Translations under genes and position numbers: made by a program
UHGV virus genome: UHGV-1374697
DNA length: 64,000 nucleotides
Source of the DNA: a virus
Direction: 5' to 3' (one strand)
The notes under the pieces: model-generated
The model's input: the letters and a program-made list of their open reading frames with translations, nothing else
Databases searched by the model: none
Told to the model about the DNA's origin: nothing
In this document: in pieces, positions 20,914 to 64,000 of the stretch
Position numbering within the stretch: the stretch's first letter is position 1
Layout: each line of letters opens with the position of its first letter

Positions 20914-20916
20914 GGT

Positions 20917-49509: not shown

Positions 49510-49892
49510 TAGTGTTTGGGTGTATTTAGTTGTTCCTTCGCTTGCGCGTAGTATTCTTGTGGGGTGCTCATAGGAATTCCGGCGGTTCTGTCCTTCTTGT
49601 ACATCTTGACGGCACGGTTCATGTGGTTCACGACTTCCCGGCATTTTTCGTTTGCGAGGAATATCCCATCCTCAAAGGAGAAACCTTCATCGCGCCCCGT
49701 AGCGGCTACTAGGCGCAATGCGAGAATGGCGATGTCGGTTGCCTCCTTTACGCGGTCCTCCGCGTCAGCTTCCCGGTATTCTTCAATCTCCCACAGAAGA
49801 TGGCGCAGGAGGTCAGCGGCTGATTCCTCTAATCCCATATAGGAGAAGTGGGAATCAACAGTTTGGGCGGCGATTGCAATTTCGTTGTACAT
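49509..49892 (-). CDS. possible MazG-like all-alpha NTP pyrophosphohydrolase (127 aa)
   Basis: HLLWEIEEYREADAEDRVKEATDIAILALRL resembles the MazG ExxE...ExxD metal-binding helices. The match is weak. Confidence 0.4.
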   Translation of the reverse strand: MYNEIAIAAQTVDSHFSYMGLEESAADLLRHLLWEIEEYREADAEDRVKEATDIAILALRLVAATGRDEGFSFEDGIFLANEKCREVVNHMNRAVKMYKKDRTAGIPMSTPQEYYAQAKEQLNTPKH

Positions 49893-49895
49893 AGT

Positions 49896-50156
49896 TTAGC
49901 GTGATATGATTATGAAGAAGAGAGTGACCAATGTTGCGGAGAGGCCAAAGATATTGACGTTCATGTCCCGGTTACTCCGTTTCAATAGATGTGTGAGGGT
50001 GATGTAGATGAAGGACCACACCAACAGAACGATGAGGACGAGAATGAGCGAGAAGATGAGGGAGGCCAGTAGGGGCATACCATTGACCAGAAAGCCCATA
50101 GATAGGGAGAGGTAATAGATGCCCATGTAGGGGGATAATTCTGCTAGGTCTTTCAT
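49896..50156 (-). CDS. small membrane protein (86 aa, 2-3 transmembrane helices)
   Basis: Strongly hydrophobic. Part of a string of four small transmembrane genes. Confidence 0.5.
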   Translation of the reverse strand: MKDLAELSPYMGIYYLSLSMGFLVNGMPLLASLIFSLILVLIVLLVWSFIYITLTHLLKRSNRDMNVNIFGLSATLVTLFFIIISR

Positions 50157-50158
50157 GA

Positions 50159-50464
50159 TTAGCTCTTCATCGCATTATAGAGGCAGAGTATAGGGACTAA
50201 GTAGAAACCAGCGGCGGCGACTGCCCCGAAAAAGAAAGAATCCTTCTTCGGAATGGAGTTCACCGTAACAACAAAGAGAATTTGAAGCACGTGACTGCCG
50301 AGTACCGCTAAGAAGCACGTCATCCACGAATATTCAGGAGAATACCCTTTAACCACTAGGGTAAGGACAAAGGGTATGAATGAGAGAACCGGAAGCATCT
50401 GCTCCAACGTGTCCTCGAGGTTTTCCCTAAATCTTTGAGAGTAGTCCATGTTTTCCAATGTCAT
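50159..50464 (-). CDS. small membrane protein (about 101 aa)
   Basis: Hydrophobic. Taking the start at 50464 (MTLENMDYS) gives an ATGA overlap with the stop of the upstream micro-ORF, whereas the ATG at 50479 would overlap by 19 nt. Confidence 0.5.
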   Translation of the reverse strand: MTLENMDYSQRFRENLEDTLEQMLPVLSFIPFVLTLVVKGYSPEYSWMTCFLAVLGSHVLQILFVVTVNSIPKKDSFFFGAVAAAGFYLVPILCLYNAMKS

Positions 50465-50619
50465 AAGTCTTTTGGGCATAAGAGGTTAGATTTATTGTCC
50501 GTTTCTTTGTAATAGCTCCACAGGTCTTTTGCGTATATGGAAGCCCCCTCGTAAATCAGGAGGAGCAGATTCACTATTCCAACAAATACTACAACTAAAA
50601 CTAAAATATCTTCCAACAT
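50461..50619 (-). CDS. unannotated 52-aa single-transmembrane protein (MLEDILVLVVVFVGIVNLLLLIYEGASIYAKDLWSYYKETDNKSNLLCPKDL)
   Basis: Hand-translated from the 141-nt gap. The ATG lies 1 nt after the upstream TAA, and the stop overlaps the downstream ATG. It falls below the ORF-track cutoff. Confidence 0.45.
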   Translation of the reverse strand: MLEDILVLVVVFVGIVNLLLLIYEGASIYAKDLWSYYKETDNKSNLLCPKDL

Positions 50620-50620
50620 A

Positions 50621-50932
50621 TTAATGAACAAGTTTATAGATTACCCATACCACAGGACGCACGATTACCATGTGGAAAAGTTGTTGAATATAGTGCAAGA
50701 GAAACAAAGAGCCTTTGTGTATCATGAATGGGACGAGCACCATAGGTATAAGTATGACCATAAAGCAGGCCTTGGCATAAAGAGACTCGTCTTTCAGGAA
50801 GATGAAGGCGCGGTACTGGCAATATAGAAACAATCCGGATACCAATATCGTCAAAGTGATAAGTGCTAGTTTGTCCTTCCCATCCCTCACCAAGCCGGTG
50901 AACCACGATTTCCATTCTTCTTTTGCTGTCAT
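50621..50932 (-). CDS. small membrane protein (103 aa)
   Basis: Hydrophobic helices (LALITLTILVSGLFLY..., VILIPMVLVPFMI). Confidence 0.5.
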   Translation of the reverse strand: MTAKEEWKSWFTGLVRDGKDKLALITLTILVSGLFLYCQYRAFIFLKDESLYAKACFMVILIPMVLVPFMIHKGSLFLLHYIQQLFHMVIVRPVVWVIYKLVH

Positions 50933-51086
50933 GTTTGTTGCTTGTTTGCTTAGTTGTATTCTATGGGATTAGCGGAACGGGATTGGCCCCGCCCCGGAAT
51001 CCCGGTGACGAGGCCAATGTATCAAAGATTGGATTTTTGTCAAGAAGTTTTTAGAAGAAATTTTTGATGAAGTTGTAACTCGCTCA

Positions 51087-53927
51087 CTATCCTACGATTA
51101 CTTCTTGGCGTTGTTTGTCCTGTTCTTCCCATTCGGGGAAGTCCCGATACCAACGGGCCTTAGTACTGTCGCTTGCGTACTTGAGCCAGTCTTCTACATG
51201 GAGGAACCTCATGCGCCGTCTTCCTCCCGACACCTGTTTCGTTTTCCACCATGCTTCGTCTTGGAAGTAAGTGGTGATGGCGGTCTTGAACCCTGCGAGG
51301 GACTGACGCTTAGGAGCGTTAGCGGAACGCGGCTGGTCCGTCACCACCCCCGTATCTCGGATGGTGTAGAGAATATGCAGGAGAGCTTGCGGCCCCGTAT
51401 AGGTGATGGGAATATGCTTCCACAAAGGATTGCCCTCCTTATCCGTATCTATGTCCCAATCAACCGGACGAAGCTGGGTCACAAGGGATTCCTCCGCGGA
51501 TTCCCGCATGCCATACTTGGTGTTTATCTCTTGGGACTTCTGCACCACCATGCTTACAAGTTCGCTAACATCCTTGCTTAGCGAGTGGTAGTTCTCATAC
51601 ACCTGCGCCCATAGTTGCTGTATATCTATGGAATCACGAACCTTCTTCGCCGTAGCTAGGTCCCCTCCCATACTGCGGACATAAAGGACAGAGTAGCGGC
51701 GGTTCCCCGTGGCATCCGTCAGTGGGTTGGGGTCGTTGGACGTACCAATGAACACCGCCTTCGGCTTATACATCCGCTGGTCACGCTGGTATGCCGCACG
51801 GGTCTTGGCGGGCTGGATGTCAAGAGCATTCTTCACTTTGTTCGCGTCCTCCGGGTTAGAGAGGATTCGGTCAATCTCGTCCAGCTGGATAACATGGGTA
51901 CTGCTCTTCTGCACGATAGCATCCTTCTCATTATGGATGTCAAAGCTACTCGTGAAGCATCCGGGATAGTCGGCAAGGAGCTTAGAGGCCCAGTAAGATT
52001 TACCGCTACCTTGGCTACCAATGAAGATGGGGCAGAAGATGGGGCACATGTTATTAACATCTTCCATCGACTTCTCCATGTGGTCGAGGACGGTGTAGAG
52101 CCATGTACGAAGCACGAAGTCCAGCCACTCTTCTTCGGTATAGCCTTCCGGGGCCATGCCCTCTTCCAGTTCAAGAGTACGGATGTACTGCCCCACTCGG
52201 TCAATACCATCCCAAGGTTTTACGCACAAGGTGGATGCGAGGGGGTGGTAGAAGAAGTTGGTGGAGATACTGCGGAAGGTTGCGTCCAGTTCGTGTTGCA
52301 ATTTGGAGGTAGCCGTTCCTACTGCCAGATAGCTGGCCCACTTGCCCGCGATGTGGTTCACGAACTCCGGGTCGTAAGGATAGAGCCTTCGGCTCACGAG
52401 GTCCAGCACCAGTTTGGTCTCATTAGCTACATCGGTCACAATGCGGAGACCAATGGAGGCAAGAAGGAAGCTAACATTAACGAATGATACGGAAACGATG
52501 TCCTTCTTGGGGTCCTTCATGGGGAAGTCGAGAGTAGCCCAGCGTTCAGGTTTCTTTGCCTGATAAGCCTTCCCCTCCGGTAAGGGTCCGGTCTCGGCAA
52601 GGATTTTCTTTAGCTCTGCGTCGGGGTTATATATCTTATCCAGCAAGGATTCAGATTCAGCATCCGTAACCGGAGGGGTTATGGTGGCAATGTCTCTGTT
52701 CTCGATGTCCAGCACATACATGCGGAACAGGTCATTCATGCTCTTCACCTTCCGGTCCTTGTCTTGGCAGGAGCTATGGAGGCAATGGAACCATGAGGTA
52801 GATGGGAAGTCCCGGACAATGTTGAATTGCAGGTCACGGTCGGCACGGTGTCCCGTGCATACGCTTGCGCACGCGGGGCACATGCCGTACATGTGGTTCC
52901 CCTCCCAGCGCATTGCCCGGAAGCCCTCGGCCTGTTCGGCGTAGCCATTATCGTCCAGCCACTTGGGGAACTCGGAGATAAGAATGGGAAGCGGGTCCCG
53001 CTCGGTCAGGAGGTCATCCTCTGCCGCGGGAGCCACGGTTTCCTTGGTAGCCCGTTCGACCAGCTTGTCAAGGGAGGGCACGGTAAATACCTGCGGCGTA
53101 TCTTTATCCCGTTCCACCAACTCCCCGTGGTAGAGGAACTGCAACCGGGAGATGTCCTTACATGCGGGGTCGCAGGTCAGACCGGAGAGGTTGTACACTT
53201 GGTCCCACAGGTATTTGCAGATTAGCTGGTGGCGAGCCTGACGAATAGCCGCGACGTACTTGCCCATATCCGGGATATGGGAATCCGTGGAATCCGTGGA
53301 TTCCGGGGGTTCCGAGATGTTGAGAGCCTCGCGTGCCCGTTCATCGACTTGGACGAAGAACTTGAACCCGCCACTGGGGCTGACGTACCCGAACAAGTAA
53401 CCGGGCAAGTGGGAGAGCTTATCCTCGGCAATGCGTTTAAGTTCCTCCGTAGTGGCGGGGTTCGTATCTTCATCCTTCTTCTTTAGGTCAATGTCCAGAC
53501 CAATGATGCCGGAGTGGGACCAGAAGGAGATAGCCCGGCGCAATGCGGTACGCGGGTCAACGGTCTTCTTATTCTCGCCCAGCATAGATGGGACGGAATG
53601 GAAGATGACGGAAGGGATGAGGGCAGGAAGCGCGTTCTTGACCTTCACCTCGCCATCTGGGCTGTTCTCCTTCCATCGGGTATAGACCTTCTCATAGGCG
53701 GGAGCCAATGGCGCACGAAGTGGCCGCCCTGCCTGTTTATCGAGAAGGAGTGATAATTGGAGACTTGTCTTTAACCGCTCGTCCGCGATGTCGTTACTGC
53801 GGAGGAAGTTAATGAGACAGTCGATTGTAATTGCCTGTGGATTCTTCCCGCTTCCGGTAAAGACGCGAGGAGCGTTACTCCGCTCCAACAAATCCCAAGG
53901 CGTGGGGATTAGAGTAATGGATTGCAT
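51087..53927 (-). CDS. bifunctional primase-polymerase (AEP) fused to an SF3 (D5-like) helicase
   Basis: AEP motif I IIGLDID. SF3 Walker A FIGSQGSGKS, Walker B VIQLDEID, and motif C GTSNDPN. Four-Cys zinc motif CPACASVC...CLHSSC. The start at 53927 (MQSITLIPT) has an A-rich leader. The ATG at 54032 is an upstream in-frame extension. Confidence 0.8.
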   Translation of the reverse strand: MQSITLIPTPWDLLERSNAPRVFTGSGKNPQAITIDCLINFLRSNDIADERLKTSLQLSLLLDKQAGRPLRAPLAPAYEKVYTRWKENSPDGEVKVKNALPALIPSVIFHSVPSMLGENKKTVDPRTALRRAISFWSHSGIIGLDIDLKKKDEDTNPATTEELKRIAEDKLSHLPGYLFGYVSPSGGFKFFVQVDERAREALNISEPPESTDSTDSHIPDMGKYVAAIRQARHQLICKYLWDQVYNLSGLTCDPACKDISRLQFLYHGELVERDKDTPQVFTVPSLDKLVERATKETVAPAAEDDLLTERDPLPILISEFPKWLDDNGYAEQAEGFRAMRWEGNHMYGMCPACASVCTGHRADRDLQFNIVRDFPSTSWFHCLHSSCQDKDRKVKSMNDLFRMYVLDIENRDIATITPPVTDAESESLLDKIYNPDAELKKILAETGPLPEGKAYQAKKPERWATLDFPMKDPKKDIVSVSFVNVSFLLASIGLRIVTDVANETKLVLDLVSRRLYPYDPEFVNHIAGKWASYLAVGTATSKLQHELDATFRSISTNFFYHPLASTLCVKPWDGIDRVGQYIRTLELEEGMAPEGYTEEEWLDFVLRTWLYTVLDHMEKSMEDVNNMCPIFCPIFIGSQGSGKSYWASKLLADYPGCFTSSFDIHNEKDAIVQKSSTHVIQLDEIDRILSNPEDANKVKNALDIQPAKTRAAYQRDQRMYKPKAVFIGTSNDPNPLTDATGNRRYSVLYVRSMGGDLATAKKVRDSIDIQQLWAQVYENYHSLSKDVSELVSMVVQKSQEINTKYGMRESAEESLVTQLRPVDWDIDTDKEGNPLWKHIPITYTGPQALLHILYTIRDTGVVTDQPRSANAPKRQSLAGFKTAITTYFQDEAWWKTKQVSGGRRRMRFLHVEDWLKYASDSTKARWYRDFPEWEEQDKQRQEVIVG

Positions 53928-54090
53928 ACTTTTATGAATGAGGCCGGTGGAGCGTGGACGGCGTAGTCCGCACCCTCGTGGCCTATGGTTTGAATTGCCG
54001 TCCGGAGGTCGAACGGTGTCCGAGGCTACCACGGGTTCCGGGGGTTGTCAAGTAGAATCTACGACCCTTAACAAGCATGTAACAAGCAAG

Positions 54091-54562
54091 ATTTAGAGTA
54101 GTTGTTACGGTAAGTTATTGAGTATATACGACTTAACAACTATAACAAGCATAACAAGCAAAAACCGTAGTTAAACGTGTACGCACTCGTCCTCGTGCCG
54201 TATGGCGGTCGCGCTACGCGCTCCGCGAACCATGTTTTTATGATAGGGAAAGGGCTAACTCGGAAAGCGATTAAAACTGAATGAGTTAGCGTAACAACCT
54301 ATCAAAATCTCGATGTAAGATGTTAAGAGCCAAGTACTTAACAGCTGAAGCTCGAAAGAAGTTGTTACGCTGGGTCATTGATAATAAACGACTTAACAAC
54401 TATAACAAGCAAACAAGCAAATTCTACAGACTCTATATATGTGTATATAAGGCCTCCCCTATACCCCTCTTTTCTTATATAACTACTATTTTTGCTTGTT
54501 TTGGTTGTTATAGTTGTTAAACTATTAAAAAAGAAGGGGTTAGCGTAACAACTACTCTAAAT
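54091..54562. repeat. AT-rich iteron block bracketed by 19-bp inverted repeats; origin-of-replication candidate
   Basis: ATTTAGAGTAGTTGTTACG (54091-54109) and its reverse complement (54544-54562) flank several copies of AACAACTATAACAAGCA-type units. A 22-bp perfect direct repeat CGACTTAACAACTATAACAAGC sits at 54129 and 54389, with inverted copies near 54497 and 54585. The block is adjacent to the primase-helicase gene. Confidence 0.5.
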
Positions 54563-54937
54563 CATGCTTGTTATAGGTTGTTAGTAGATGTTACAAGATT
54601 GAGAATGAACGGATTAAGAGAACAGCATTGGGCGTCAGCCACTTATGAGTATGGGGTTCTCCGGCTAAAGAAAAACCCTTCGGAAGCAGGACATGCCTAC
54701 CTCCGAAGGGCTACGCCTTGGGAACATCAACCTAGGAGATGGGTGACAGGAGGGCGTTGCTTCGAGTAGGACTTACCTACTACCTTACTGCCTACCCTCC
54801 ACGCGTTGCCCTCCTGTCTGGCCGTATAATACCAGCCCCATCGAAAAAGTCAAGACAATCCTCTGCCAATATGTTATTTTGTTATGCACGCGTATATACG
54901 CGCCCACATGTGTGTACGCCCCCTTTCCAAATCTCCT

Positions 54938-55060
54938 GAATTTAATCGAGCGTCCTACCCTAGAACGCGCCGCAACCCTCCCTCCGCTACAACTATCCAC
55001 CCGGACCCCGTCCCCTCCTTCTACCCCGCCACACTGGATTAAATTCGTAAACGCGCCATC
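54938..55060. repeat. copy 1 of a roughly 70-90-bp direct repeat family in the control region
   Basis: GAATTTAATCGAG(C/G)GTCCTACCCTAGAACGCGCC(G/A)CAACC...CCGCTA(C/T)AACTA. A second copy lies at 55417-55481 with the adjacent A-segment permuted. Confidence 0.5.
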
Positions 55061-55231
55061 ACACCAATTTCCTCTTGACTTTCTCCCCTGATGTGATATG
55101 TTGCACCTGTTCGCTCCGAACGGCAACCGAACCAGCTAAGCCCAATGCTTCTGGCTATCCCAAGCGGGGAATCCGCATGCCACAGGAGCGGACTAAACAC
55201 TCTCCTTTCTACAGGCATTTTCCATAGTTAC

Positions 55232-55276
55232 GCCCGTGGGTAGTCTCGTCAAGCTACCTGCGGGCTTTTTCTTTGC
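55232..55276 (+). terminator. plus-strand rho-independent terminator inside the non-coding region, marking the possible 3' end of an ncRNA
   Basis: GCCCGTGGGTAG-tctcgtcaag-CTACCTGCGGGC-tttttctttg. No protein-coding gene lies upstream on the plus strand. Confidence 0.4.
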
Positions 55277-55389
55277 CGCCAAATCCGCGAGAGCCGCTCC
55301 GTCGCATTATGCCCGCCGTGCGCAAATTTGGTCGATGGTAGTGCCCTATCTCCTGTTTCATGACTAATGTACCCACTCGCTACCTATAC

Positions 55390-55481
55390 CCCGTCACACT
55401 CTTGTAAATTTGCCCGAATTTAATCGAGGGTCCTACCCTAGAACGCGCCACAACCGCTGGTCCGCTATAACTACCCGCCCG
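55390..55481. repeat. copy 2 of the roughly 70-90-bp direct repeat family
   Basis: See copy 1. The two copies are more than 85% identical over about 65 bp. Confidence 0.5.
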
Positions 55482-55859
55482 AAGAGTATGCCCGCCTTCT
55501 AGGTTGATACGTCCCCCCGTGGACTAGCCGCGTGTCGATTTTTCTTGACTAGGCGGGGATGGGGTGCAGACCAGATGAGGCTGAAACAGACCAGAGGTCA
55601 TGACCATCATGTTGAACCCACGGAACCCACGCACCCCGCGAAGCGGCCATGACCATGTACCCACCCATGTACCCGCCGCATGTCGATTTTGCTTGACAAC
55701 CGACAACCGACATGCCCAGAAGGGTACTCCCTCCCCCGTACCCCACGGAAAAAATTTGACCCAACTATTTACTATGGGCCGCGTGCAACCCCGGAGCCTG
55801 GGAAACCGTGGTGGTGTTTGGATTTTCTTGGTATCCAATTTCCCCCTATACCTACGGAA

Positions 55860-56070
55860 TCGGTGCATCACGGAACCTTTTTGCCTCTGATTGCACCGGG
55901 AACGGTATATCCCGGGGGGGCCTGCCTATCCCCCACATGCACCGGAATCGGTAAGATAGGCCACCGTGTTGCAACGGGAACGGTATACCACCTGCCCTGA
56001 ACTGCCACCGCCCCTGTCATGGGAACGGTACGCCATGCAACCCATTGAATCCTCGGAATCTGTTGCAACC
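55860..56070. repeat. cluster of degenerate GGGAACGGTA / CGGAATCGGT direct repeats
   Basis: ccGGGAACGGTAtatcc, caacGGGAACGGTAtacc, catGGGAACGGTAcgcc, plus cCGGAATCGGTgcatc, caCCGGAATCGGTaagat and cctCGGAATCtgttg, spaced 30-40 bp apart. Confidence 0.45.
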
Positions 56071-56394
56071 GTCTGATGATAAGGAACTTATGGTATAAAG
56101 AGGTCTGTAGGTCTCCGGGGGAACCGAGGGTGCAATACCTGTTTCCCACTGACACCCTGATATGCGTAACTCGTTGATACTCTAGGCAATCCGCTTCCAT
56201 ACTTCGCATAATACATATAATGCAAAATCGCATTCCGGTTTTCCTACTAATCCGATAGGAATTGAAATTGAAGGTGCTGGAGAAGGCAGGAAAGGGGCAG
56301 GGTCTTGCCCTCAAATTGTTCAACTCTGGACGGGTTAAGTATCAACAACATATGAAGCATACCCTAGGGGGTATAGGTATCCTTCCCTCATTAA

Positions 56395-56552
56395 TAGTCA
56401 AATATTGGACTAATGGCTTTTACATTTTTGTAAAAGCCCTATATCTTGTATGTCAAATTGTCACACCCCTATATCTTGCGTACCTGTAGCGGTGCAATCG
56501 GCAGGCGGCCAGTCCTTGCGGTTTTGCCGTCAGATAGTCAAATATCGGACTA
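56395..56552. promoter_or_regulatory. two near-palindromic 18-bp operator-like sites TAGTCAAATAT(T/C)GGACTA
   Basis: Sites at 56395-56412 and 56533-56552 with GACTA/TAGTC half-sites. The direct repeat CCCTATATCTTG x2 (56443-56490) lies between them. Confidence 0.45.
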
Positions 56553-56577
56553 TCTATCTTCAAAGATTGTTAGACCG

Positions 56578-56783
56578 GACTTATAAAGTTAGGCTGGACT
56601 TAAAAGTTAGGCTGGACTTATAAAGTTAGACCGGACTTAATAAGTTAGGCTGGACTTATAAAGTTAGGCTGGACTTAAAAGTTAGGCTGGACTTATAAAG
56701 TTAGGCTGGACTTAAAAGTTAGTCCAAACTTAAAATGTTAGGCCGGACTTAATAAGTTAGACGGCACTTACAAGGGAGGAATG
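56578..56783. repeat. tandem array of about 11 units of 18-19 bp, GTTAGGCTGGACTTA(T)AAA
   Basis: Alternating 19-bp and 18-bp units, with degenerate units at the 3' end. They share the GGACT half-site with the upstream palindromes. There are no unique spacers. Confidence 0.8.
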
Positions 56784-56819
56784 TTTAAGAATCCTTAATA
56801 GTTATGAATCCTTAACTAT

Positions 56820-56882
56820 CTTGAAGCCCTTGAAGCCCTTGAAGCCCTTGAAGCCCTTGAAGCCCTTGAAGCCGTTGAAGCC
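56820..56882. repeat. tandem repeat of 9 bp x7 (CTTGAAGCC)
   Basis: Six perfect copies plus GTTGAAGCC. Confidence 0.85.
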
Positions 56883-56986
56883 GCTATCCCACCACAACCG
56901 ATTGCCCGAAATTGTTCCATGTGGAACATTTTAAGGCCAAAAGATACCAAAAGAATACAAAAGAATCCCCTACACTATATATATAA

Positions 56987-57047
56987 AAGGGGAACCGGGG
57001 GAACCGGATACCGGGGGAACCGGGGGAACCGGGAATCATGGATACCG
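56987..57047. repeat. GGGGGAACCG x4 direct repeats (the GGAACC motif family) just upstream of the first early promoter
   Basis: aaaGGGGAACCGGGGGAACCGGataCCGGGGGAACCGGGGGAACCGGgaatcatggataccg. Confidence 0.7.
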
Positions 57048-57116
57048 AAGGGTTGTATGACACAATTATAACACGCAGATAGTCAGCAGGTTACAACGCG
57101 CCGGAAAGAAAACCGC

Positions 57117-57171
57117 TTGACGCACCCGGCAATCATGTTAAATTGCAATCATCCAACGGGGAACAACCCCC
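57117..57171 (+). promoter_or_regulatory. early promoter and leader-hairpin cassette, copy a (degenerate)
   Basis: TTGACG-N15-TTAAAT, then tgcaatcatcc and the hairpin CGGGG-aacaa-CCCCG, upstream of the ATG at 57215. Confidence 0.4.
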
Positions 57172-57214
57172 GGACAATGAGAACACTAATTAAATAGATA
57201 GGAGACCACTAATC

Positions 57215-57499
57215 ATGATTATCAACATCATCATCAATCGCAGGTGCGGCCTCATTAACTATGACGCCGCTACACATCTTAAAGCTATCTATGACTACGC
57301 AACCGCCGCCGGACTGTCAGACCTAGCCCGTGCGTTGGATAGCGGAAAAGAAGCTGATGTTAAGGCCGCTCTCATGCACTATGTCATCAATGGGGGTTGC
57401 AACCCGGACATCCACCACTACAACATGTTTGACTTGTGCTTATTTATCAACCGGGTGCGGTGGACGGATGAAGAAGAAGAATCTGCTGATACTGAATGA
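57215..57499 (+). CDS. early hypothetical protein (94 aa)
   Basis: First plus-strand ORF after the control region, with an A-rich leader. Confidence 0.5.
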   Translation: MIINIIINRRCGLINYDAATHLKAIYDYATAAGLSDLARALDSGKEADVKAALMHYVINGGCNPDIHHYNMFDLCLFINRVRWTDEEEESADTE

Positions 57500-57532
57500 T
57501 TTATGATTGTGTCATACAACTCAAAAAACTAT

Positions 57533-57585
57533 TTGACAACACTCTAAAATCTGATAAATTGCAATCATCCACCGGGGCAACCCGG
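57533..57585 (+). promoter_or_regulatory. early promoter and leader-hairpin cassette, copy b
   Basis: TTGACA-N16-TAAATT, then gcaatcatcc and the hairpin CCGGG-gcaa-CCCGG. It is preceded by GTCATACAACTCAAAAAACT, and AACAATAGAAAGAAATAA lies 8 nt before the ATG at 57628. Confidence 0.55.
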
Positions 57586-57627
57586 ACAACGAAAAGAAAC
57601 ACTAAAACAATAGAAAGAAATAATACA

Positions 57628-58056
57628 ATGAGCACATATACAGATCACGCAAAGAGATTCCTTGAAAATTGCGGAATCAGAATTACCGGAAAGTATAAGG
57701 GAAGATATGTTCCCTTGTGGGATAAAGAGCCGCATAGCACATGGGAAATTGTCCTGCGGCGTGAAGACCGCCGGAAGGGAGAAAAAGACGCAATCTTCAT
57801 CACGTTTTATCAGTCACACGCAGATAAGTACAAGACGCCCACCGCTTATGCCGTACTGGCTTGCCTGTGTAAGTCAGATTGTGGCTCCTATCAGGACTTT
57901 TGTGAAGATATGGGATTGCCCCTATATGACGAGGATACGGGGGAACGCAATATGGATTCCTATTGCCAGTACACAGCGGCGTGCCATGAGTACGCAGATC
58001 TTAAAACCTTCTTCACCCGCCCGGGTGAATGGGAAGAGCTGGAAGAGATTTATTGA
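57628..58056 (+). CDS. early hypothetical Cys-rich protein (142 aa)
   Basis: The start at 57628 (MSTYTDHAKRF) is supported by the conserved leader. The ATG at 57496 lies inside the promoter cassette. Confidence 0.55.
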   Translation: MSTYTDHAKRFLENCGIRITGKYKGRYVPLWDKEPHSTWEIVLRREDRRKGEKDAIFITFYQSHADKYKTPTAYAVLACLCKSDCGSYQDFCEDMGLPLYDEDTGERNMDSYCQYTAACHEYADLKTFFTRPGEWEELEEIY

Positions 58057-58122
58057 ACCTTGAAAAGATACGCCACTCTACGAAACATTTAACCACAAAC
58101 CAACAACAGAAAGAATAATACT

Positions 58123-58512
58123 ATGAAAGACATATCAGAATTACACATCAGAAAGGAAATAAAAGTAGAAGGAAACGGAAAAGTTCACCTCGCCATTGAA
58201 AGCTTTAATTCCTTGCACCGAAAAGAGTATACTCTTTCCCCCGCCATGTGGGCGGCTTCGGAAGTACTACAGGACAAGGTTTCCCGGCCGGGAAGTATGT
58301 ACCTGAAAGATACGTTTTCTATCTATCGCGTAGGTGCTTATGACGTTATGATAATTTCATCCGTGGATGAATCCCCATATTCAACCCTTGAAAGATTATC
58401 GCTAGCGGAAAAGATAGCATGGTTCCCTTTCGGCATTGAAAACGTCCAACAGGTAGAAGATACCCGGCATTCTAATTCACAACATGTATCTTATCTGCGT
58501 ATCATTCAATGA
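58123..58512 (+). CDS. early hypothetical protein (129 aa)
   Basis: ORF with the leader AGAAAGAATAATACT-ATG. Confidence 0.5.
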   Translation: MKDISELHIRKEIKVEGNGKVHLAIESFNSLHRKEYTLSPAMWAASEVLQDKVSRPGSMYLKDTFSIYRVGAYDVMIISSVDESPYSTLERLSLAEKIAWFPFGIENVQQVEDTRHSNSQHVSYLRIIQ

Positions 58513-58588
58513 ATATGAAACCCGTTAAAGCTGAATAATTACACCGCCCTAACATATTAACAATAAAACAATAGAAAGAAATAAAATC

Positions 58589-59116
58589 ATGAATACATTT
58601 CCTAAAATGCTCAATGTTACTGAATACGCCCTGATTCATGACATTCCAGAATGGGCAATCTACTCCCTTGAATACGGAGAAGGTGAAGAAGATATGGCAG
58701 ATGAAGACCTTAAAATCCTTGAAGAGTGGGAAAAAGACTACTACCCTGTTTCCTCGGTGGAAGACCAGCCGGAAGCACATTTCACCAGCACGCCCGCCTT
58801 TGGCTTGCCCTGTGACTGTGTAAAATATTATGTTCTCCCTTGGTATATAGATGCCGTCTATATGTGGGCAAAACCCGGATGCCGCATGACAAATTGTTAC
58901 CTTAAGTTCACGCTAGTTTCAGGCTCGCAGGTAAAGGTGTATCTGAACGGGCATCAAACCCTGCGGAGTGCTATCCGCAACCTGATAGGGCAGGTAGAAA
59001 TGGGGCATACTTTCACAGACGTGAACGGGCATGAAGTTACTCCAAAAGCCCGCGATATCATTAACTTCTGGATTTGTACAATGCAAGGGCAAACCCTAGC
59101 TACAGGGCGCATTTAA
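58589..59116 (+). CDS. early protein, paralog A of a duplicated pair (175 aa)
   Basis: About 60% identical to 60324..60854 (shared ...YALIHDIPEWA...TPAFGLPCDCVKYYVLP...PGCRMTNCYL...GHQTLRSAIRNLIG...GHTFTD...QTLATGRI). Has the conserved AACAATAGAAAGAAATAAAATC leader. Confidence 0.6.
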   Translation: MNTFPKMLNVTEYALIHDIPEWAIYSLEYGEGEEDMADEDLKILEEWEKDYYPVSSVEDQPEAHFTSTPAFGLPCDCVKYYVLPWYIDAVYMWAKPGCRMTNCYLKFTLVSGSQVKVYLNGHQTLRSAIRNLIGQVEMGHTFTDVNGHEVTPKARDIINFWICTMQGQTLATGRI

Positions 59117-59152
59117 CATATTAACAATAAAACAATAGAAAGAAATAAAATC

Positions 59153-59455
59153 ATGAATGAAGACGAAAAGAAAACGGCAATAGATATTTTAGCCGCTCAT
59201 ATCCGGGAAACGCGCCCCTACCTTTTCCAGTTGTCCGCACGCCATGATGAAGAGCTGGAACTAATCGCCGCACTAGCGGAAGCAACCGGAAGCAAGCTTA
59301 CCTTGCTTGTCAGGAACCGGGAATCCCGGGAAATGCGGGCAATCAGCATTGCGGACTATCGCCCTCATGAAATGGTAGTCAGCCGTGCCTTTATTTCAGA
59401 CCCACTATGCCTTGCCCTTGAGGAAGCGGGCGCAAGGATTGTGTATAACCGTTAA
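59153..59455 (+). CDS. early hypothetical protein (100 aa)
   Basis: ORF with the conserved leader. Confidence 0.5.
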   Translation: MNEDEKKTAIDILAAHIRETRPYLFQLSARHDEELELIAALAEATGSKLTLLVRNRESREMRAISIADYRPHEMVVSRAFISDPLCLALEEAGARIVYNR

Positions 59456-59492
59456 GTCCCCCCTGAAAAGTTACACCACCCTAAAAAAGTAT

Positions 59493-59550
59493 TTGACAAG
59501 ATAATAAAATCCGATAAACTAAAATCAGCAAGCGGGAGACAAGCTCCCGC
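59493..59550 (+). promoter_or_regulatory. early promoter and leader-hairpin cassette, copy c
   Basis: TTGACA-N16-TAAACT, then aaaatcagcaa and the hairpin GCGGGAG-acaag-CTCCCGC. It is preceded by TTACACCACCCTAAAAAAGTA, and the leader ATTAGAAAGAAATAACTT-ATG follows. Confidence 0.6.
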
Positions 59551-59581
59551 ATAACCTCAAACCATTAGAAAGAAATAACTT

Positions 59582-59908
59582 ATGAAAGAAATACTAAAAT
59601 TAGACTATGACGAAATGACTGTATCAGACCCTGACAAGATGACAATCTTGCCCCATAACTGGAAGGAAGATACTGCTCTCATGCTTACCGTTACGGATAG
59701 GGTATGCAAGGGAATCGAAAAAGCAAGGAAGCTACTTCCCACCCTACCCCGGGGAAGTGAGATTAAAATCAGGCTGGATTCTTGGTACATTCTGGGAGAA
59801 CTTAAAGGATATACGCCGGACTTCGGATATATTGTGATAAGACCGTTCGAAACTGCTTTTGTACTAGCCCTTTCTGATTCCCCGGAAACTATTTCTTGGT
59901 CGCTCTAA
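59582..59908 (+). CDS. early hypothetical protein (108 aa)
   Basis: ORF downstream of cassette c. Confidence 0.5.
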   Translation: MKEILKLDYDEMTVSDPDKMTILPHNWKEDTALMLTVTDRVCKGIEKARKLLPTLPRGSEIKIRLDSWYILGELKGYTPDFGYIVIRPFETAFVLALSDSPETISWSL

Positions 59909-59945
59909 TTTATCATACAACTGAAAACCTAAACAACACTATATC

Positions 59946-60269
59946 ATGAACACTCAAATTGAATTGAAAGACAACGAAATCCCGGCATGGGCATTCTACG
60001 AAAACGGCGAGGGCCTTCTGTCCCTTATCTTTTTCGCCGCATCACCTTCACATGCACGCCCCATTGCCGCCCTGCTTAACATATACCCGTGGGATGCCCT
60101 GCCAGAATTAGATGATTCTGACATTGTGCGCTTGTGGCAGGCGGTGAAAGAGAATGAGTTAGGGGACTGGTGTACCTATGACGCAAAGGAAATTAACCGG
60201 TATCTGGAACAACGGTTCTGCCAGTCAGTAGCTACAGCTTCTATAATTACGCCGCTCCCCATTGAATAA
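59946..60269 (+). CDS. early hypothetical protein (107 aa)
   Basis: An ORF. Confidence 0.5.
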   Translation: MNTQIELKDNEIPAWAFYENGEGLLSLIFFAASPSHARPIAALLNIYPWDALPELDDSDIVRLWQAVKENELGDWCTYDAKEINRYLEQRFCQSVATASIITPLPIE

Positions 60270-60323
60270 CTACGCCGCCCTATAAAATCAAACTAATAAT
60301 AAACAATAGAAAGCAACCATATT

Positions 60324-60854
60324 ATGAAGACTACAACTAAACCGGAAATACTTAAAGTATCAGACTATGCCCTTATCCATGACATTCCCACCTATGCCCT
60401 CAATTACTTGGTGTGCGGGGAAGATGAAAGCCTCGCCCCTGATGACATTGAAAACATTGAAGAGTGGAAAAAAGACTACTATCTTGCCCCCCTAGTTGAA
60501 GGCCAGCTGGTTGCTCTTCATTCTGCCACTCCGGCTTTCGGTTCACCCTGCCCTTGTGTAAAATACTATGTCCTGCCTCGCTTTATGGGGGCAGTCCTGA
60601 CATGGATAAATCCGGGTTGCCGGATGACTAACTGCTACCTTGAACTTAAGCTTACAGACGGTGGCCGGGTAAAGGTGTATCTGAAAGGGCATCAAACCCT
60701 GCGCAGTACTATCCGCAACCTGATTGGCTTGGTAGAAACGGGACATACTTTCACCGATATGAACGGCCACAATGTATCCCCCCGTCCCCGTGATATCGTT
60801 AATTTCTGGATTCGTACAATGCACGGGCAAACGCTGGCAACCGGAAGAATATAA
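60324..60854 (+). CDS. early protein, paralog B of the duplicated pair (176 aa)
   Basis: See 58589..59116. Has the leader AACAATAGAAAGCAACCATATT-ATG. Confidence 0.6.
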   Translation: MKTTTKPEILKVSDYALIHDIPTYALNYLVCGEDESLAPDDIENIEEWKKDYYLAPLVEGQLVALHSATPAFGSPCPCVKYYVLPRFMGAVLTWINPGCRMTNCYLELKLTDGGRVKVYLKGHQTLRSTIRNLIGLVETGHTFTDMNGHNVSPRPRDIVNFWIRTMHGQTLATGRI

Positions 60855-60905
60855 ACCACTTGCGGCTTGTTCCGGGGAATCAAAATTGTTCCACGTGGAA
60901 CATTT

Positions 60906-61034
60906 AAACCCCGGAACCCCCGGAACCCGTCAAATAACTCTAACCAAATAACAACGTAGAAAGACAAAGGAATAATTCCCGCCCCCGGAATGCGGGGGAT
61001 ATCGGGTGCAACGGGTTCCGGGGGTTCCGGGGTT
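60906..61034. repeat. 21-bp perfect inverted repeat pair (CCCCGGAACCCCCGGAACCCG ... CGGGTTCCGGGGGTTCCGGGG) enclosing a leader-like segment and a GC hairpin, with no ORF
   Basis: The arms lie at 60906-60930 and 61010-61034. Between them sits AACTCTAACCAAATAACAACGTAGAAAGACAAAGG (leader-like) and the hairpin CCCGCCCCCGG-aat-GCGGGGGATATCGGG. Confidence 0.6.
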
Positions 61035-61095
61035 TAACAATAAACCAATCATAAATTACAGACCGTGAATAACTACGCCGCTCTATAAAAAGTAT

Positions 61096-61149
61096 TTGAC
61101 AAGATAAGAAAATCTGCTAAACTGAAATCATCAGCCACCGGAAGGGTGG
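61096..61149 (+). promoter_or_regulatory. early promoter and leader-hairpin cassette, copy d
   Basis: TTGACA-N16-TAAACT, then gaaatcatcag and the hairpin CCACC-ggaag-GGTGG. It is preceded by CTACGCCGCTCTATAAAAAGTA, and the leader AACAATAGAAAGAATAATACT-ATG (61186) follows. Confidence 0.6.
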
Positions 61150-61185
61150 CAACTATATCAACAAAACAATAGAAAGAATAATACT

Positions 61186-61614
61186 ATGAAAGAAAATGAG
61201 ATTGAAGTATGGGGAACTACGGAAGCGCAAGACGTTTCATCAAACGCCGTTAATAGCCGAGGTGAAAAGTGCCGCATTGTGCGCACCTATGACTACTACC
61301 CGGACGAGCATGAGATACATGAACACGTCAGTATTCAGAATGCCGTTAGTATTAAACTGGTAGAGTTTAACGCTTACAAGGTGCGGGACTTGATTGAAAA
61401 TACAGAAAGGTTCCGTGCTCGTCTTTCCGATTGCACAACCACCGTTCCTACGTGCGAACCGAAAGCCGAACCGTATGCGAGAAGCAACTCTATTAGAGTA
61501 TTCCGGGAAAGAGCCGTGCAATATTATGGCACAAACTCTGATTCTTTTACTCTCTACACGGATAGAAACTTTTTGGACATTCCTATACCCCTCGTTGTTC
61601 TCTTCTCAAAATAA
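61186..61614 (+). CDS. early hypothetical protein (142 aa)
   Basis: ORF downstream of cassette d. Confidence 0.5.
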   Translation: MKENEIEVWGTTEAQDVSSNAVNSRGEKCRIVRTYDYYPDEHEIHEHVSIQNAVSIKLVEFNAYKVRDLIENTERFRARLSDCTTTVPTCEPKAEPYARSNSIRVFRERAVQYYGTNSDSFTLYTDRNFLDIPIPLVVLFSK

Positions 61615-61652
61615 ATAGGATACGCCTTTTGTCATACAAAACAAAAAACTAG

Positions 61653-61709
61653 TTGACAAGATAAGAAAATCTGCTAAACTGAAATCATCCAGCGGGGGAC
61701 AAGCCCCGC
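61653..61709 (+). promoter_or_regulatory. early promoter and leader-hairpin cassette, copy e
   Basis: TTGACA-N16-TAAACT, then gaaatcatcca and the hairpin GCGGGG-gacaa-GCCCCGC. It is preceded by GTCATACAAAACAAAAAACTAG, and the leader CCGATAGAAAGAATAAAACA-ATG (61754) follows. Confidence 0.6.
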
Positions 61710-61753
61710 AACAATAAACCAAACAACAATAAACCGATAGAAAGAATAAAACA

Positions 61754-62503
61754 ATGAATACTACATCCGCAAACCTCACCAGTGCCGCCGCCATTAATGC
61801 CCTTACTGAACGGGCAAATGCCGCTATCGATGCCGCCGTAGACAAGGTGCGTGACGACCTCATGAAGAATAATCAGAATGACTATGTCATCCCGGTGAAA
61901 AATATGGGGCATAACCTGAAACAGGTTGTCCGAGATAATGCCGCCTATGGTCTGGCCGCCTTTATTACTCACCGCATGCTGATACTAGTGGCCGAACGCC
62001 TTCGCCAGTTTGAAGGCAAGGTCTATAACGTCCGAGTAGAACGGATGATGGATGACTGTCTGGCCGCCGCAATCGTGCAAAGCGTTGATGCGGACATTAA
62101 AATCCGAGCCTATATAGATAGAAGTCACTACGCATGGCCGAAAGTGGTGTTTCATCATATCCTCCCCGGCATGTATGATAACATAAATATTTCCTTTAAC
62201 TTTGACGTCAACGAATTGACGCAGAAGCAGAAGCGGATTGTCACCGGGAGGGACATGGAGAAATTCATTGAAGGAATCTTCAATGATATGGTTCGCCTTG
62301 ATACCAAGCTTCAAGAAATTGAGGATTCAAACTACCGCCTTTGCAATTCCGACTACATGTGCGCCTATTTTACACAAGCCGTTAAAGTGGAAGAGCAAGT
62401 GGAGAGCTTGAAGCAAGGCCTTAAAAACCTGACTGGTGCACAATACTATCGCTTCGACTATAACCACACAACCGTTTCCACCCTTCCCTCCTACAGGGCA
62501 TGA
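61754..62503 (+). CDS. early hypothetical protein (249 aa)
   Basis: The largest early ORF. No motif recognised. Confidence 0.55.
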   Translation: MNTTSANLTSAAAINALTERANAAIDAAVDKVRDDLMKNNQNDYVIPVKNMGHNLKQVVRDNAAYGLAAFITHRMLILVAERLRQFEGKVYNVRVERMMDDCLAAAIVQSVDADIKIRAYIDRSHYAWPKVVFHHILPGMYDNINISFNFDVNELTQKQKRIVTGRDMEKFIEGIFNDMVRLDTKLQEIEDSNYRLCNSDYMCAYFTQAVKVEEQVESLKQGLKNLTGAQYYRFDYNHTTVSTLPSYRA

Positions 62504-62588
62504 CTTAAACCCCGCCCCAGCTACCCTATTTATTAGAACCCTCAAATAACTCTAACCAAACAATCAACAAACCAAACAATAAAACACC

Positions 62589-62903
62589 ATGAGAACCTAC
62601 ATTGAAAAATTAGGCAAGGAATACATTGAAGGCAGAAAAGAAAGTGGTAAGTCTCCCTTGCGGACCGGATTATACGGAGTGCGTTTGCGCTCCATGACAT
62701 GGAAGCGCACCCGACTTTTCTCCTATCAAACGCATGTTGCCACCCTCGACCGCCTAGGTAAAGTACTGTATGTTACGACCAAAAAATATTCACAAACCAC
62801 TACCCGGCAAATGCGGGATATTGAATGGCTCGCAAGTTGCAACGGCTTTCATATCGTACCTACCGAACGCGTTGAAGATTATGCACATATCCTTGAAGGA
62901 TAG
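62589..62903 (+). CDS. early hypothetical basic protein (104 aa)
   Basis: ORF with the A/C-rich leader AACTCTAACCAAACAATCAACAAACCAAACAATAAAACACC-ATG. Confidence 0.5.
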   Translation: MRTYIEKLGKEYIEGRKESGKSPLRTGLYGVRLRSMTWKRTRLFSYQTHVATLDRLGKVLYVTTKKYSQTTTRQMRDIEWLASCNGFHIVPTERVEDYAHILEG

Positions 62904-62979
62904 TATCATACATATTAAAGTAAAAACCTGATAGAGTATTATCTTTTCCCTTAGAACCGACAAAGAACACTACAAAATT

Positions 62980-63585: not shown

Positions 63586-63615
63586 ACCCTTAGAAACCTC
63601 ACATAGCTCTATAAT

Positions 63616-63969: not shown

Positions 63970-64000
63970 TTAGAACCCCCACATGGCTCTACAAAAACAA

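Follow-up and report, generated by a model that had tools for sequence, protein, structure and literature searches.

The 3287-bp stretch at positions 53928–57214 of the phage genome UHGV-1374697, analyzed here as a window of 64,000 nucleotides, separates two gene blocks that diverge from it, one on the minus strand (53927 down to 1725) and one on the plus strand (from 57215). In our moderately confident judgment, it is a composite non-coding genome center with at least four working parts: a putative replication origin, a minus-strand transcription unit, a plus-strand gene for a small RNA (sRNA), and a series of motifs and arrays at 55500–57214. The functions proposed below are read from sequence and build on the repeats, the lack of coding signal, the conserved layout, promoter and terminator signatures, and the fold of a helicase. 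The parts are of known kinds, namely a Rep-type iteron origin, terminated small RNAs, promoters and tandem arrays. New are the combination of elements and its conservation across an uncultured gut phage family, as well as a candidate origin upstream of a fused Pri-Rep gene, an sRNA resembling the 16S tail and a hypervariable array zone.

The initial annotation had placed a gene-free region between the divergent blocks, and this is borne out with one boundary reset. The gene for a 946-aa VapE-type primase-helicase on the minus strand more probably starts at ATG 53927 than at GTG 54032, so the gene-free stretch covers 53928–57214; the plus block opens with small early open reading frames (ORFs), the first ATG being at 57215. 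No ORF within the region keeps its frame or length across 10 related contigs. Hidden protein genes were considered for the ORFs of 96–151 aa in 55524–56323 and rejected, as neither frames nor lengths are kept in relatives and the translations are noise-like; translations of ORFs in the region (up to 151 aa) are rich in R, G, P and W. A 3-nt period is absent from the variable columns when 54745–56016 is aligned with the related contig L013 (p = 0.70) and when separate blocks of the region are taken from a nine-genome alignment (p = 0.25–0.78), while the neighboring primase gene, used as a positive control, gives p = 7e-22. Substitutions without codon periodicity indicate that the region is non-coding. 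Searched with Rfam 15, the window has no match that reaches the gathering score, and the matches within the region are at chance level (E ≥ 0.63); a search of the window for tRNA and tmRNA genes found none.

The region is repeat-rich beyond chance. Tandem repeats called by Tandem Repeats Finder (TRF) cover 500 nt (15.7%) of 54033–57214 and 2.3% of the rest of the window; 100 dinucleotide-preserving shuffles gave a mean of 7.7 nt (about 0.2%) and a maximum of 50 nt. All seven repeat families listed in the initial annotation, together with its plus-strand terminator, were recovered within about 25 nt of their given positions. Its coordinates for a 7 x CTTGAAGCC repeat are exact, whereas the second copy of a direct repeat had been placed about 20 nt too far left and those of an 18/19-bp array were shifted by about 9 nt. 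GC skew is −0.18 across 55001–56000. A turning point of the skew near 54 kb coincides with the change of coding strand and was not used as evidence for an origin.

The window is 100% identical over 47215–64000 to a JGI metagenome contig, Ga0495776_051220 (71,261 bp), and its relatives are human-gut metagenome contigs of about 67–72 kb. With dozens of ~70-kb contigs from independent samples, the family is common in human-gut metagenomes, and it has no cultured relative and almost no annotated genes. Among the 50,697 phage records of INPHARED, no close relative was found by a nucleotide search of the region or by protein searches with the primase, DNA polymerase and terminase, and a host and prophage search of 185,579 species genomes returned no relative. 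Beyond the replication genes and an early-gene DUF6926 domain, family matches are confined to DUF3310, the large terminase, an exonuclease and an endolysin; most other proteins tested have none. The region offers handles on this family: an origin candidate for which both a hexamer and a putative initiator can be named, a promoter consensus found at late genes as well, two putative small RNAs, and a 26-nt landmark at a recombination joint between genome modules. A Shine-Dalgarno-like word, even a loose one, stands upstream of only 8 of 60 genes, and leaders are A-rich. Because Shine-Dalgarno words are scarce and leaders A-rich, a known habit of Bacteroidota (PMC7797042), the host is likely of Bacteroidota type.

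Relatives, here given L numbers, were collected through primase homologues and a conserved 26-mer and fall into at least four clades. Their primases are 67% (L012/L013), 45–49% (L014, L015, L035–L037, L039), 34% (L038) and 29% (L082) identical to that of the window. Layout was compared for the clades with enough upstream DNA, and one order of elements is common to the window clade, L013, L035/L036/L038 and L082. The primase gene, in some clades with an extra gene ahead of it, is followed by CCGTGG-type 9-bp arrays and the AT-rich iteron block, by a promoter–hairpin–terminator unit on the minus strand and by a promoter–RNA–terminator unit on the plus strand. Next come two to four copies of GCCGYRYGTCGATTTYKCTTGACA, an island terminating in GGAAACCGTGGTGGT, the 26-mer CATACTTCGCATAATACATATAATGC, tandem arrays with AT-rich palindromes, and lastly the early promoter and the early genes.

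Within the window clade, 54000–56300 is about 92% identical and divergence is sharp past about 56330. Against L012, non-coding 54745–56016 is 83.7% identical, compared with 79% for the alignable part of the primase gene and 93.8% for the downstream replication genes. By these figures, the region is roughly on a par with coding DNA in its conservation, within a mosaic genome. In distant clades BLASTN aligns only 55672–55831 and 56139–56223 (72–77% identity), and some short motifs there stay exact or nearly so.

The AT-rich block at 54060–54600 most likely works like a Rep-type replication origin, a term used here for its mode of action rather than for strict family membership. It holds 15 TAACAA(G/C) hexamer iterons, nine in plus and six in minus orientation; half of the window's 30 TAACAA sites thus fall within 541 bp (0.85% of the window). 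The AT-rich core lies at about 54420–54500, and an 80%-AT core stretch at 54470–54530 is the 60-nt window with the highest AT content anywhere in the region. Facing iterons flank this core, plus-oriented at 54394 and 54403 on the left and minus-oriented at 54505 and 54514 on the right. The block is built from two ~257-bp direct repeats with nested inverted repeats, the outer arms of 34 nt (54080–54113 / 54540–54573, 94% complementary) and the inner arms of 41 nt (54133–54173 / 54480–54520). An iteron block with bounding inverted repeats had been annotated and is present, the bounding arms measuring 34 nt.

The iteron layout recurs with a clade-specific word in L013, L035, L036, L038, L039, L015 and L082, and the arrangement of a core with facing iterons is shared by L013, L035, L038 and L082. 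The most frequent word of the block is TAACAA in genomes with 45–67% primase identity, TAACAT/TAACAC in L015 (47%), GGAACAA in L038 (34%) and AATAGTA in L082 (29%); the word changes following primase divergence. DnaA boxes (TTWTNCACA, both strands) are absent from 53928–57214, the window's eight sites all lying elsewhere.

The product of the adjacent gene is a candidate initiator. The primase-helicase has a Pfam VapE-like domain (E = 6e-27), and a profile of its family matches one PDB structure only, the Rep protein of Staphylococcus aureus pathogenicity island (SaPI) 1, 7PDS (E = 1.5e-8). An AlphaFold2 model of residues 540–946, built from a 40-sequence alignment, reached a pLDDT of 82.8. Foldseek again ranks 7PDS first for this model (E = 1e-12, about 400 alignment columns), followed by the NrS-1 and poxvirus D5/E5 primase-helicases. 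Residues 296–406 of the model form helices and a short beta-hairpin, and the alignment to 7PDS runs over nearly the full length of the model, taken as a whole rather than for the putative winged helix alone. By this predicted structure, the helicase half is related to the SaPI Rep initiator. SaPI Reps serve both as self-loading helicases and as initiators, with a C-terminal winged-helix domain that reads 5–6-nt iterons, and SaPI origins carry six to twelve iterons beside rep, around a central AT-rich stretch with at least two per side in opposite directions (PMC9371898). Here, a VapE/Rep-family helicase is encoded beside the block, the iterons are multiple and short, and the AT-rich center has opposed iterons. 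We propose that the 946-aa protein, a fused Pri-Rep-type self-loading helicase, binds the TAACAA hexamers flanking the 80%-AT core and opens the DNA there, as SaPI Reps do at their origins.

Compared with the origins of SaPIs and other phage-inducible chromosomal islands (PICIs) that use Rep or fused Pri-Rep helicases (7PDS, 7OLA; PMC9371898), the likeness lies in the helicase half, closest to SaPI1 Rep by both sequence and structure, and in short hexamer iterons opposed around an AT-rich center next to the initiator gene. The phage block differs in lying upstream of the gene start, in its 15 rather than 6–12 iterons, and in its ~257-bp tandem duplication with long nested inverted repeats. It also differs in the 9-bp CCGTGG-type arrays that flank the blocks of relatives and in its setting, a ~70-kb phage rather than a satellite island; binding by the initiator is predicted here. 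A replication origin beside the primase-helicase gene had been one candidate function in the initial annotation. The recurring layout, the tracking of the primase by the iteron word and the SaPI Rep-like fold support it for the iteron block, not for the 18/19-bp array.

The phage P4 ori/crr and alpha system offers a second parallel, in which a single phage protein combines primase, helicase and origin binding and short iterons occur in two separated or duplicated sets. The likeness is in the fused protein and the duplicated iteron sets, while the P4 iteron TGTTCACC and its spacing differ; the two are likened by description.

Some observations weigh against the origin. The block is 130–670 bp upstream of the primase-helicase start, whereas SaPI origins lie downstream of rep, and in L013, L015, L038, L039 and L082 another gene stands between block and primase. 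Lying upstream of the gene start, the block could equally be an autoregulatory operator of the primase promoter. A promoter-like motif, GTAGATTCTACTTGACA, does lie on the minus strand at 54045–54062 ahead of the primase-helicase gene, with TAGCCT 17 nt later; it is a third copy of the GTCGATTTTNCTTGAC motif with two mismatches, faces the primase gene and may act as its promoter. That the block is such an operator, or an invertible phase-variation switch flanked by its inverted repeats, and not an origin, seems to us very unlikely. The operator view draws on the position of the block directly upstream of the primase promoter. For a switch, the 34- and 41-nt inverted repeats enclose 306–426 bp, a geometry resembling that of Bacteroidales invertons, and another, smaller hairpin of the region differs between clades in the orientation of its interior. 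However, every relative aligned over 54080–54573 is colinear with the window with no inverted copy seen, and no recombinase was found among the proteins scanned; the inverton was rejected on the absence of any inverted copy. Against an operator alone, hexamers that face each other across an AT-rich core, next to a Rep-type helicase, are characteristic of an origin, and the two roles are not mutually exclusive.

Two further observations come from relatives. A gene of 315–337 aa without a family match lies between iteron block and primase gene in L012 (2025–2972), L013 (2042–2989), L015 (254–1267) and L039 (259–1083). It is missing from the window clade and L035, and L038 and L082 have an unrelated gene there. 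The inverted hairpin is bounded by a 9-bp inverted repeat, ATGTTACCC / GGGTAACAT, and its ~70-nt interior is inverted in the L082 clade (about 9730–9850, locus coordinates) relative to L035 (about 4450–4545) and L038. It is either a small evolutionary loop inversion or a flip-flop element.

A small transcription unit aimed at the candidate origin lies on the minus strand at 54853–54665 and would produce an RNA of ~150 nt. It comprises a promoter, TTGACT-16-TATTAT (54853–54826, 10 of 12 consensus positions, extended TG), a hairpin with the 11-bp stem GACAGGAGGGC / GCCCUCCUGUC and a G-rich interior (54818–54745), and an intrinsic terminator with 17 pairs and a T-tract (54712–54665). The fold energy is −69.9 kcal/mol (z = −4.4). 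L013 retains the hairpin; its terminator stem is shorter by 2 bp, the loss on one arm being compensated on the other, and its promoter is placed about 60 nt further upstream. In L035 and L082 a longer unit occupies the same place and orientation, and their terminator-type stems covary (GGGGGUC/GACCCCC against GAGGGAG/CUCCCUC) around a conserved loop. The unit was absent from the initial annotation and is a second non-coding RNA candidate of the region. The predicted RNA is G-rich and ends about 80 nt short of the iteron block, whose edge is near 54585. Firing toward the origin, the promoter would yield a G-rich hairpin RNA that acts either as a small RNA of its own or as a transcript that may activate or prime the origin. 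Inside the hairpin at 54745–54818, a direct repeat GCGTTGC...GCGTTGC reads GCATTGC...GCATTGC in L013, a concerted change in copies that are unpaired with each other.

On the plus strand, 55075–55275 is supported as an sRNA gene consisting of a promoter, a predicted RNA of ~165 nt and a terminator. The promoter, TTGACT-N16-TATGTTGC (55075–55104; −10 TATGTT(GC), with TG), belongs to a phage promoter family, TTGAC-N16-18-TAnnWTG[CGT], with seven matches in the window against 0.43 expected in shuffles. These are at 55075, 57117 and 57533 on the plus strand and at 51043, 23229, 18112 and 12388 on the minus strand; apart from the sRNA promoter, each of the remaining six stands a short way ahead of a gene start and is correctly oriented for it, one of these genes encoding a 3308-aa protein. 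The strong terminator has 13 pairs (stem 55232–55265) and a T-tract to 55275. Between them, a branched 5' domain precedes an invariant CCUUUCUA at 55204–55211 in a predicted single-stranded stretch. An RNA ending at the 55232–55276 terminator had been suggested in the initial annotation, and two results uphold it: the family promoter lies 130 nt upstream of the terminator, and the unit is kept in four clades.

Across those four clades, the plus-strand promoter, CCUUUCUA and the terminator are kept while the remaining sequence has diverged. L035, L038 and L082 have the same promoter type and a different GC-rich terminator, with CCUUUCUA about 23–26 nt before it. One hairpin of the sRNA (helix 4) changes from GCGG/CCGC to GCAA/UUGC between strains, with two pairs compensated. 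Neither strand of the sRNA gene holds a conserved ORF. A minus-strand ORF under it, behind a perfect Shine-Dalgarno-like AGAAAGGAG, was rejected, being unconserved and met by immediate stop codons in L035. The sRNA has no Rfam match and thus no membership in a described RNA family.

Three findings speak against the sRNA gene. The plus-strand covariation amounts to one evolutionary event, the depth of comparison being low at about one event for each helix. No significant structure is seen in the 5' domain, with fold z-scores of −1.6 in the window, −0.7 in L035 and +1.2 in L038, and a strongly structured 5' domain across clades was accordingly dropped. L036 is without the plus-strand unit, lost by deletion between two copies of a 24-nt motif; the sRNA is therefore dispensable in at least one genome.

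Phage regulatory sRNAs such as P1/P7 c4, lambda OOP and P22 sar are known, and C/U-rich sRNAs pair with ribosome-binding sites. The candidate resembles c4, OOP and sar in being short, in having its own promoter and intrinsic terminator, and in exposing a pyrimidine motif complementary to phage ribosome-binding regions. It differs in not being antisense to its candidate targets, in having no Rfam family, and in a motif that equals the 3' tail of 16S rRNA, within a genome otherwise without Shine-Dalgarno words; the pairing spans only 7 bp and is not energetically favored.

Both promoter–terminator units might instead be resting antitermination switches. Strong promoters followed by an intrinsic terminator and a very long operon are found at lambda PR'-tR' (6S RNA) and in the HK022 put leaders, and put-type RNAs likewise have a hairpin at the transcript start. 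Polymerase would then stop after ~150 nt unless a phage factor or leader RNA permits read-through into the 52-kb minus block or the early genes. Each unit points at one long gene block, the minus-strand hairpin lies within a few nt of the predicted start in the window clade, L035, L038 and L082, and family promoters are few inside the minus block (4 matches in 52 kb). The units share with lambda PR'-tR' and HK022 put a terminator within ~150–190 nt of a strong promoter, a long operon ahead and a hairpin at the RNA 5' end. The downstream genes here, however, have their own promoters: the primase gene has a promoter-like motif beyond the terminator, and the promoters of the early genes lie 1.8 kb past the plus-strand terminator. 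Moreover, no antiterminator protein, Q- or N-like, was identified, and the plus-strand unit is missing in L036. We regard antitermination switches as unlikely and keep to sRNA genes.

The conserved element of the sRNA points to translation. With its flanks, CCUUUCUA copies 7–11 nt of ACCUCCUUUCU, which we take to be the 3' end of Bacteroidota 16S rRNA. The copy is 9 nt in the window (CUCCUUUCU), 10 nt in L035 (CCUCCUUUCU), 11 nt in L082 (ACCUCCUUUCU) and 7 nt in L038 (only CCUUUCU). An oligonucleotide pair matching this tail, AGAAAGGAGGU / ACCUCCUUUCU, was used in a published study (PMC7797042). CCUUUCUA is also complementary to a UAGAAAG box 8–10 nt before the start codon of most early genes, a box that likewise complements the extreme 3' end of 16S rRNA of the Bacteroidota type. 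In seven early genes of the window TAGAAAG starts 15–17 nt before the ATG, a Shine-Dalgarno distance, and 8 of the 10 plus-strand TAGAAAG copies of the window fall in 57.6–61.8 kb. Most early genes at 57600–61760 have the leader AACAATAGAAAGAAATAA (for example at 57611, 58572, 59136, 59566, 60307, 61170 and 61738), and the same early-gene box occurs in L035, L075, L085 and L082, across three clades.

Together, these matches suggest that the sRNA probably acts on translation. The pairing between sRNA and early leaders speaks against this, as it spans only 7 bp at about −7 kcal/mol, does not exceed what the translation-initiation regions of the other gene block reach (−8.8 kcal/mol), and has a marginal edge over shuffled seeds (4% of 200 shuffles equal it). 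The lack of significant structure in the 5' domain and the loss of the unit from L036 weaken it as well. An energetically favored pairing with early leaders was rejected on these duplex energies. That the sRNA is a mimic of the 16S rRNA 3' tail which takes over translation is a doubtful proposal, and it could work in two ways. The sRNA might titrate the UAGAAAG box and shut off early translation as infection advances, or it might bind the few host mRNAs with a strong Shine-Dalgarno sequence (ribosomal protein genes, such as rpsR) and so alter ribosome choice. Bacteroidota-type ribosomes normally hide their anti-Shine-Dalgarno sequence, and the host appears to be of this kind. If true, the mimic would be an RNA-based phage takeover of translation, with a bearing on phages that face hosts without Shine-Dalgarno use.

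Two 89-nt direct repeats bracket the sRNA gene, copy 1 at 54935–55023 and copy 2 at 55413–55501 (plus strand, 79% identical). Copy 1 is flanked by a 10-bp inverted repeat, GAATTTAATC / GATTAAATTC (54938–54947 / 55037–55046), and with it is found in the window clade and L013 only. Downstream, a 24-nt motif, GCCGYRYGTCGATTTYKCTTGACA, occurs on the plus strand at 55525–55549 and 55673–55698, with the core TGTCGATTTT(T/G)CTTGAC at 55533–55549 and 55681–55697; the third copy of this core, with two mismatches, is the one ahead of the primase gene (54062–54047, minus strand). Every clade has two to four copies of the 24-nt motif per genome, oriented to the early genes, and a weaker copy faces the primase gene. 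In L035 and L038, the sRNA promoter takes its −35 region from one copy. Elsewhere the copies lack a −10 box at constant spacing, since the distance to the next conserved block varies by 0–17 nt; they may for this reason be binding sites rather than promoters. Deletions in L036 and L008 end at copies of the motif. A sigma-54 reading of TGGCAC-N5-TTGC in L035 and L036 was rejected because its spacing is not kept in other clades.

A conserved island, TGCCCAGAAGGGTAC...AAAAAATTTG...TACTATGG...GGAAACCGTGGTGGT...TTGG, follows at 55699–55845 on the plus strand. Its GGAAACCGTGGTGGT is exact in six relatives with primase identity down to 34% and in L082 (29%), and differs by one base in L008; TACTATGG has the look of a promoter. 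Dispersed copies of GGGAACGGTA / CGGAATCGGT lie at 55857–56064, with the C-rich strand as plus. The 26-mer CATACTTCGCATAATACATATAATGC (56198–56223, plus) carries a TATAATGC box at its end and is followed at about 56243–56263 by a small conserved hairpin, UUCCUA-N9-UAGGAA, in which the stem is kept and half of the loop varies. A degenerate pattern based on the 26-mer (Y at position 5, R at position 16) is matched once in each of 19 IMG/VR contigs. L035–L037 and L082 have the 26-mer unchanged, and L038 and L029 have it with one mismatch. As TATAATGC fits the −10 pattern of the TTGAC-N16-18-TAnnWTG promoter family, the 26-mer may likewise be a promoter. It marks a recombination joint between left and right control-region modules as well, since in L005 (locus L005 / L075), a member of the window clade, window-type sequence changes to L038-type directly after it (window equivalent 56224).

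The promoter-like motifs, namely the 24-nt motif, TACTATGG and the 26-mer with TATAATGC, are all oriented toward the early genes. The first early promoter, TTGACG-N16-TAAATTGC, is found with its leader GCAATCATCC...hairpin at 57117–57214 on the plus strand ahead of ATG 57215, and this module is repeated at 57533. A multi-operator switch between early and late expression, another idea of the initial annotation, is plausible: the region has conserved promoter-like motifs and palindromes, but no regulator protein was identified.

Between these motifs and the early promoter lies a zone of palindromes and arrays. Near-palindromes ATAGTCAAATAT(T/C)GGACTA at 56394–56412 and 56534–56552 enclose an AT-rich hairpin (56415–56438) and a direct repeat TTGT(A/C)A...CCCTATATCTTG; a TTTTACA...TGTAAAA palindrome is shared with the L035/L038 clade. 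An array of eleven 18/19-bp units, GTTAG-NCYRG-ACTTA(N)AAA, follows at 56569–56774, then a 2 x 17 bp array (56780–56813), seven copies of the 9-bp CTTGAAGCC (56820–56882), an array of about 3 x 10 bp (56937–56966) and 4–5 copies of GGGGGAACCG / GGGGGAACC (56988–57047), with one more GGGGGAACCG at 56117. We think that these arrays, which precede the first early promoter, probably act as structural DNA or as sets of sites for protein binding, in a zone that changes fast by slippage and recombination. A CRISPR array was rejected because the units are head-to-tail without spacers.

In the 18/19-bp unit, the flanks GTTAG...ACTTA-N-AAA are constant and the 5-nt center varies, and a motif count gives 2–10 units in 28 related loci. 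TRF finds no such array in L005 and L006, which argues against an essential role. Close relatives carry other arrays at the same place, with periods of 6, 7, 8, 9, 17, 27 or 42 bp, and many are 96–100% pure. Among strains with ~92% identity over the conserved part of the region, an array may be present or missing, and its unit and copy number vary; L003 and L006 have the same first early genes with different arrays. The 9-bp units look like variants of CCG-KKG-RAN, and similar arrays flank the iteron block in distant clades.

These findings bring in a serious rival, that 56390–57050 is slippage-prone filler without sequence-specific function, tolerated in the space that separates the conserved control elements from the first early promoter. 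In its favor, near-identical strains vary in units, periods and copy numbers, the 18/19-bp array can be missing, L003 and L006 differ in their arrays, and the purity of many arrays points to recent expansion. On the other hand, some array stands at this place in every clade, the most distant included, the 9-bp units vary a single theme, and the genomes of these phages are otherwise tightly packed. The constant flanks around a varying center, and a half-site GGACT(T)A common to the 18/19-bp unit and both near-palindromes, also speak for function. On this evidence, we hold filler to be rather unlikely and binding-site arrays or structural DNA to be probable.

The 18/19-bp array could also be transcribed as a decoy RNA of 37-nt (19 + 18) units, for example a ToxI-like mimic of a type III antitoxin that neutralizes a host abortive-infection toxin. 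TRF also reads 5.1 copies of a 37-nt unit, the copy number is strain-variable as an arms race would predict, and the sequence of each unit could form a 5-bp hairpin with a variable loop. However, the true unit is 18/19 nt, the nearest Rfam match is sub-threshold (IMES-3, 20.9 bits against a gathering score of 55), no toxN-like gene is nearby, and neither Pfam nor PHROG links any of the downstream ORFs to such toxins. With no terminator after the array and no array in L005 and L006, a decoy is extremely improbable.

Tandem repeats of 9 bp of the CCGTGG / GGAAYCC type were also seen within coding regions, including the primase gene (window 53280–53314, 8150–8195, 23289–23313 and 11916–11933), and flanking the iteron block in L014 (1–60) and at the upstream end of L039. 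CCGTGG/CCACGG was dismissed as a genome-wide enriched signal; the window has 79 scattered copies, and the listed over-represented hexamers do not include it.

Short repeats adjoin the T7 terminal repeat, and the T5 iss region stops DNA injection. The region might similarly hold the ends of the packaged genome (a direct terminal repeat or pac/cos), with the arrays serving terminase recognition, concatemer processing or an injection stop. Many contigs do end here, including six metagenome contigs of 67–71 kb, both gene blocks would read inward from such ends, and Logan contig L015 (1–26) and ENA contigs L024 and L026 run into sequencing adapters here. We read the last 110 nt of 18 contigs ending in the region. 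Most of the ends lie in arrays longer than the assembly k-mer (L007, L009, L013, L022, L025, L028, L032, L039) and further ones in the 89-nt repeat (L002, L004, L016). The adapters are untrimmed TruSeq/Nextera read-through at unrelated positions, one of them outside the region. Other full-length contigs break elsewhere, L003 near window 50165, L005 in the giant gene and L008 near 30 kb, which fits circular assembly, and the large terminase gene is 10 kb off (41651–43486).

Contig ends were therefore discarded as terminus evidence, and their clustering is an assembly product that says nothing for or against termini. The packaging or terminal-repeat function proposed in the initial annotation is not supported, and packaged ends in this region seem to us quite unlikely. 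In T5, the untranslated iss region is part of the long terminal repeat, at the end of the first-step-transfer DNA, and carries eight paired DnaA boxes inside inverted repeats (bioRxiv 10.1101/866236). It resembles the region described here in being a non-coding stretch of >1.5 kb beside the earliest genes, with its order kept among relatives, crowded with direct and inverted repeats, palindromes and, in T5, a 9-copy tandem repeat (bioRxiv 10.1101/866236). Unlike T5 iss, the present region has no DnaA box, a further point against termini, and adds a putative iteron origin and putative sRNA genes. Untrimmed TruSeq/Nextera adapters at the ends of public Logan and ENA contigs could pass for genome termini.

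Several observations concern genes elsewhere in the window. The 3308-aa protein (2382–12308, minus strand) is rich in A, L, S, D and E and has no Pfam or PHROG match. It may be a virion RNA polymerase, which would read the 24-nt motifs, or an ejection or tail protein; three loose DxDxD matches decide nothing. Six tandem paralogous genes (78–84 aa) lie at 19740–21171 on the minus strand, and TRF reads part of them as a 229-bp repeat in 2.9 copies. The early genes at 58589–59116 and 60324–60854 are paralogues with the DUF6926 domain, and the early block consists of repeated modules of promoter, leader and small gene that are mosaic between strains.

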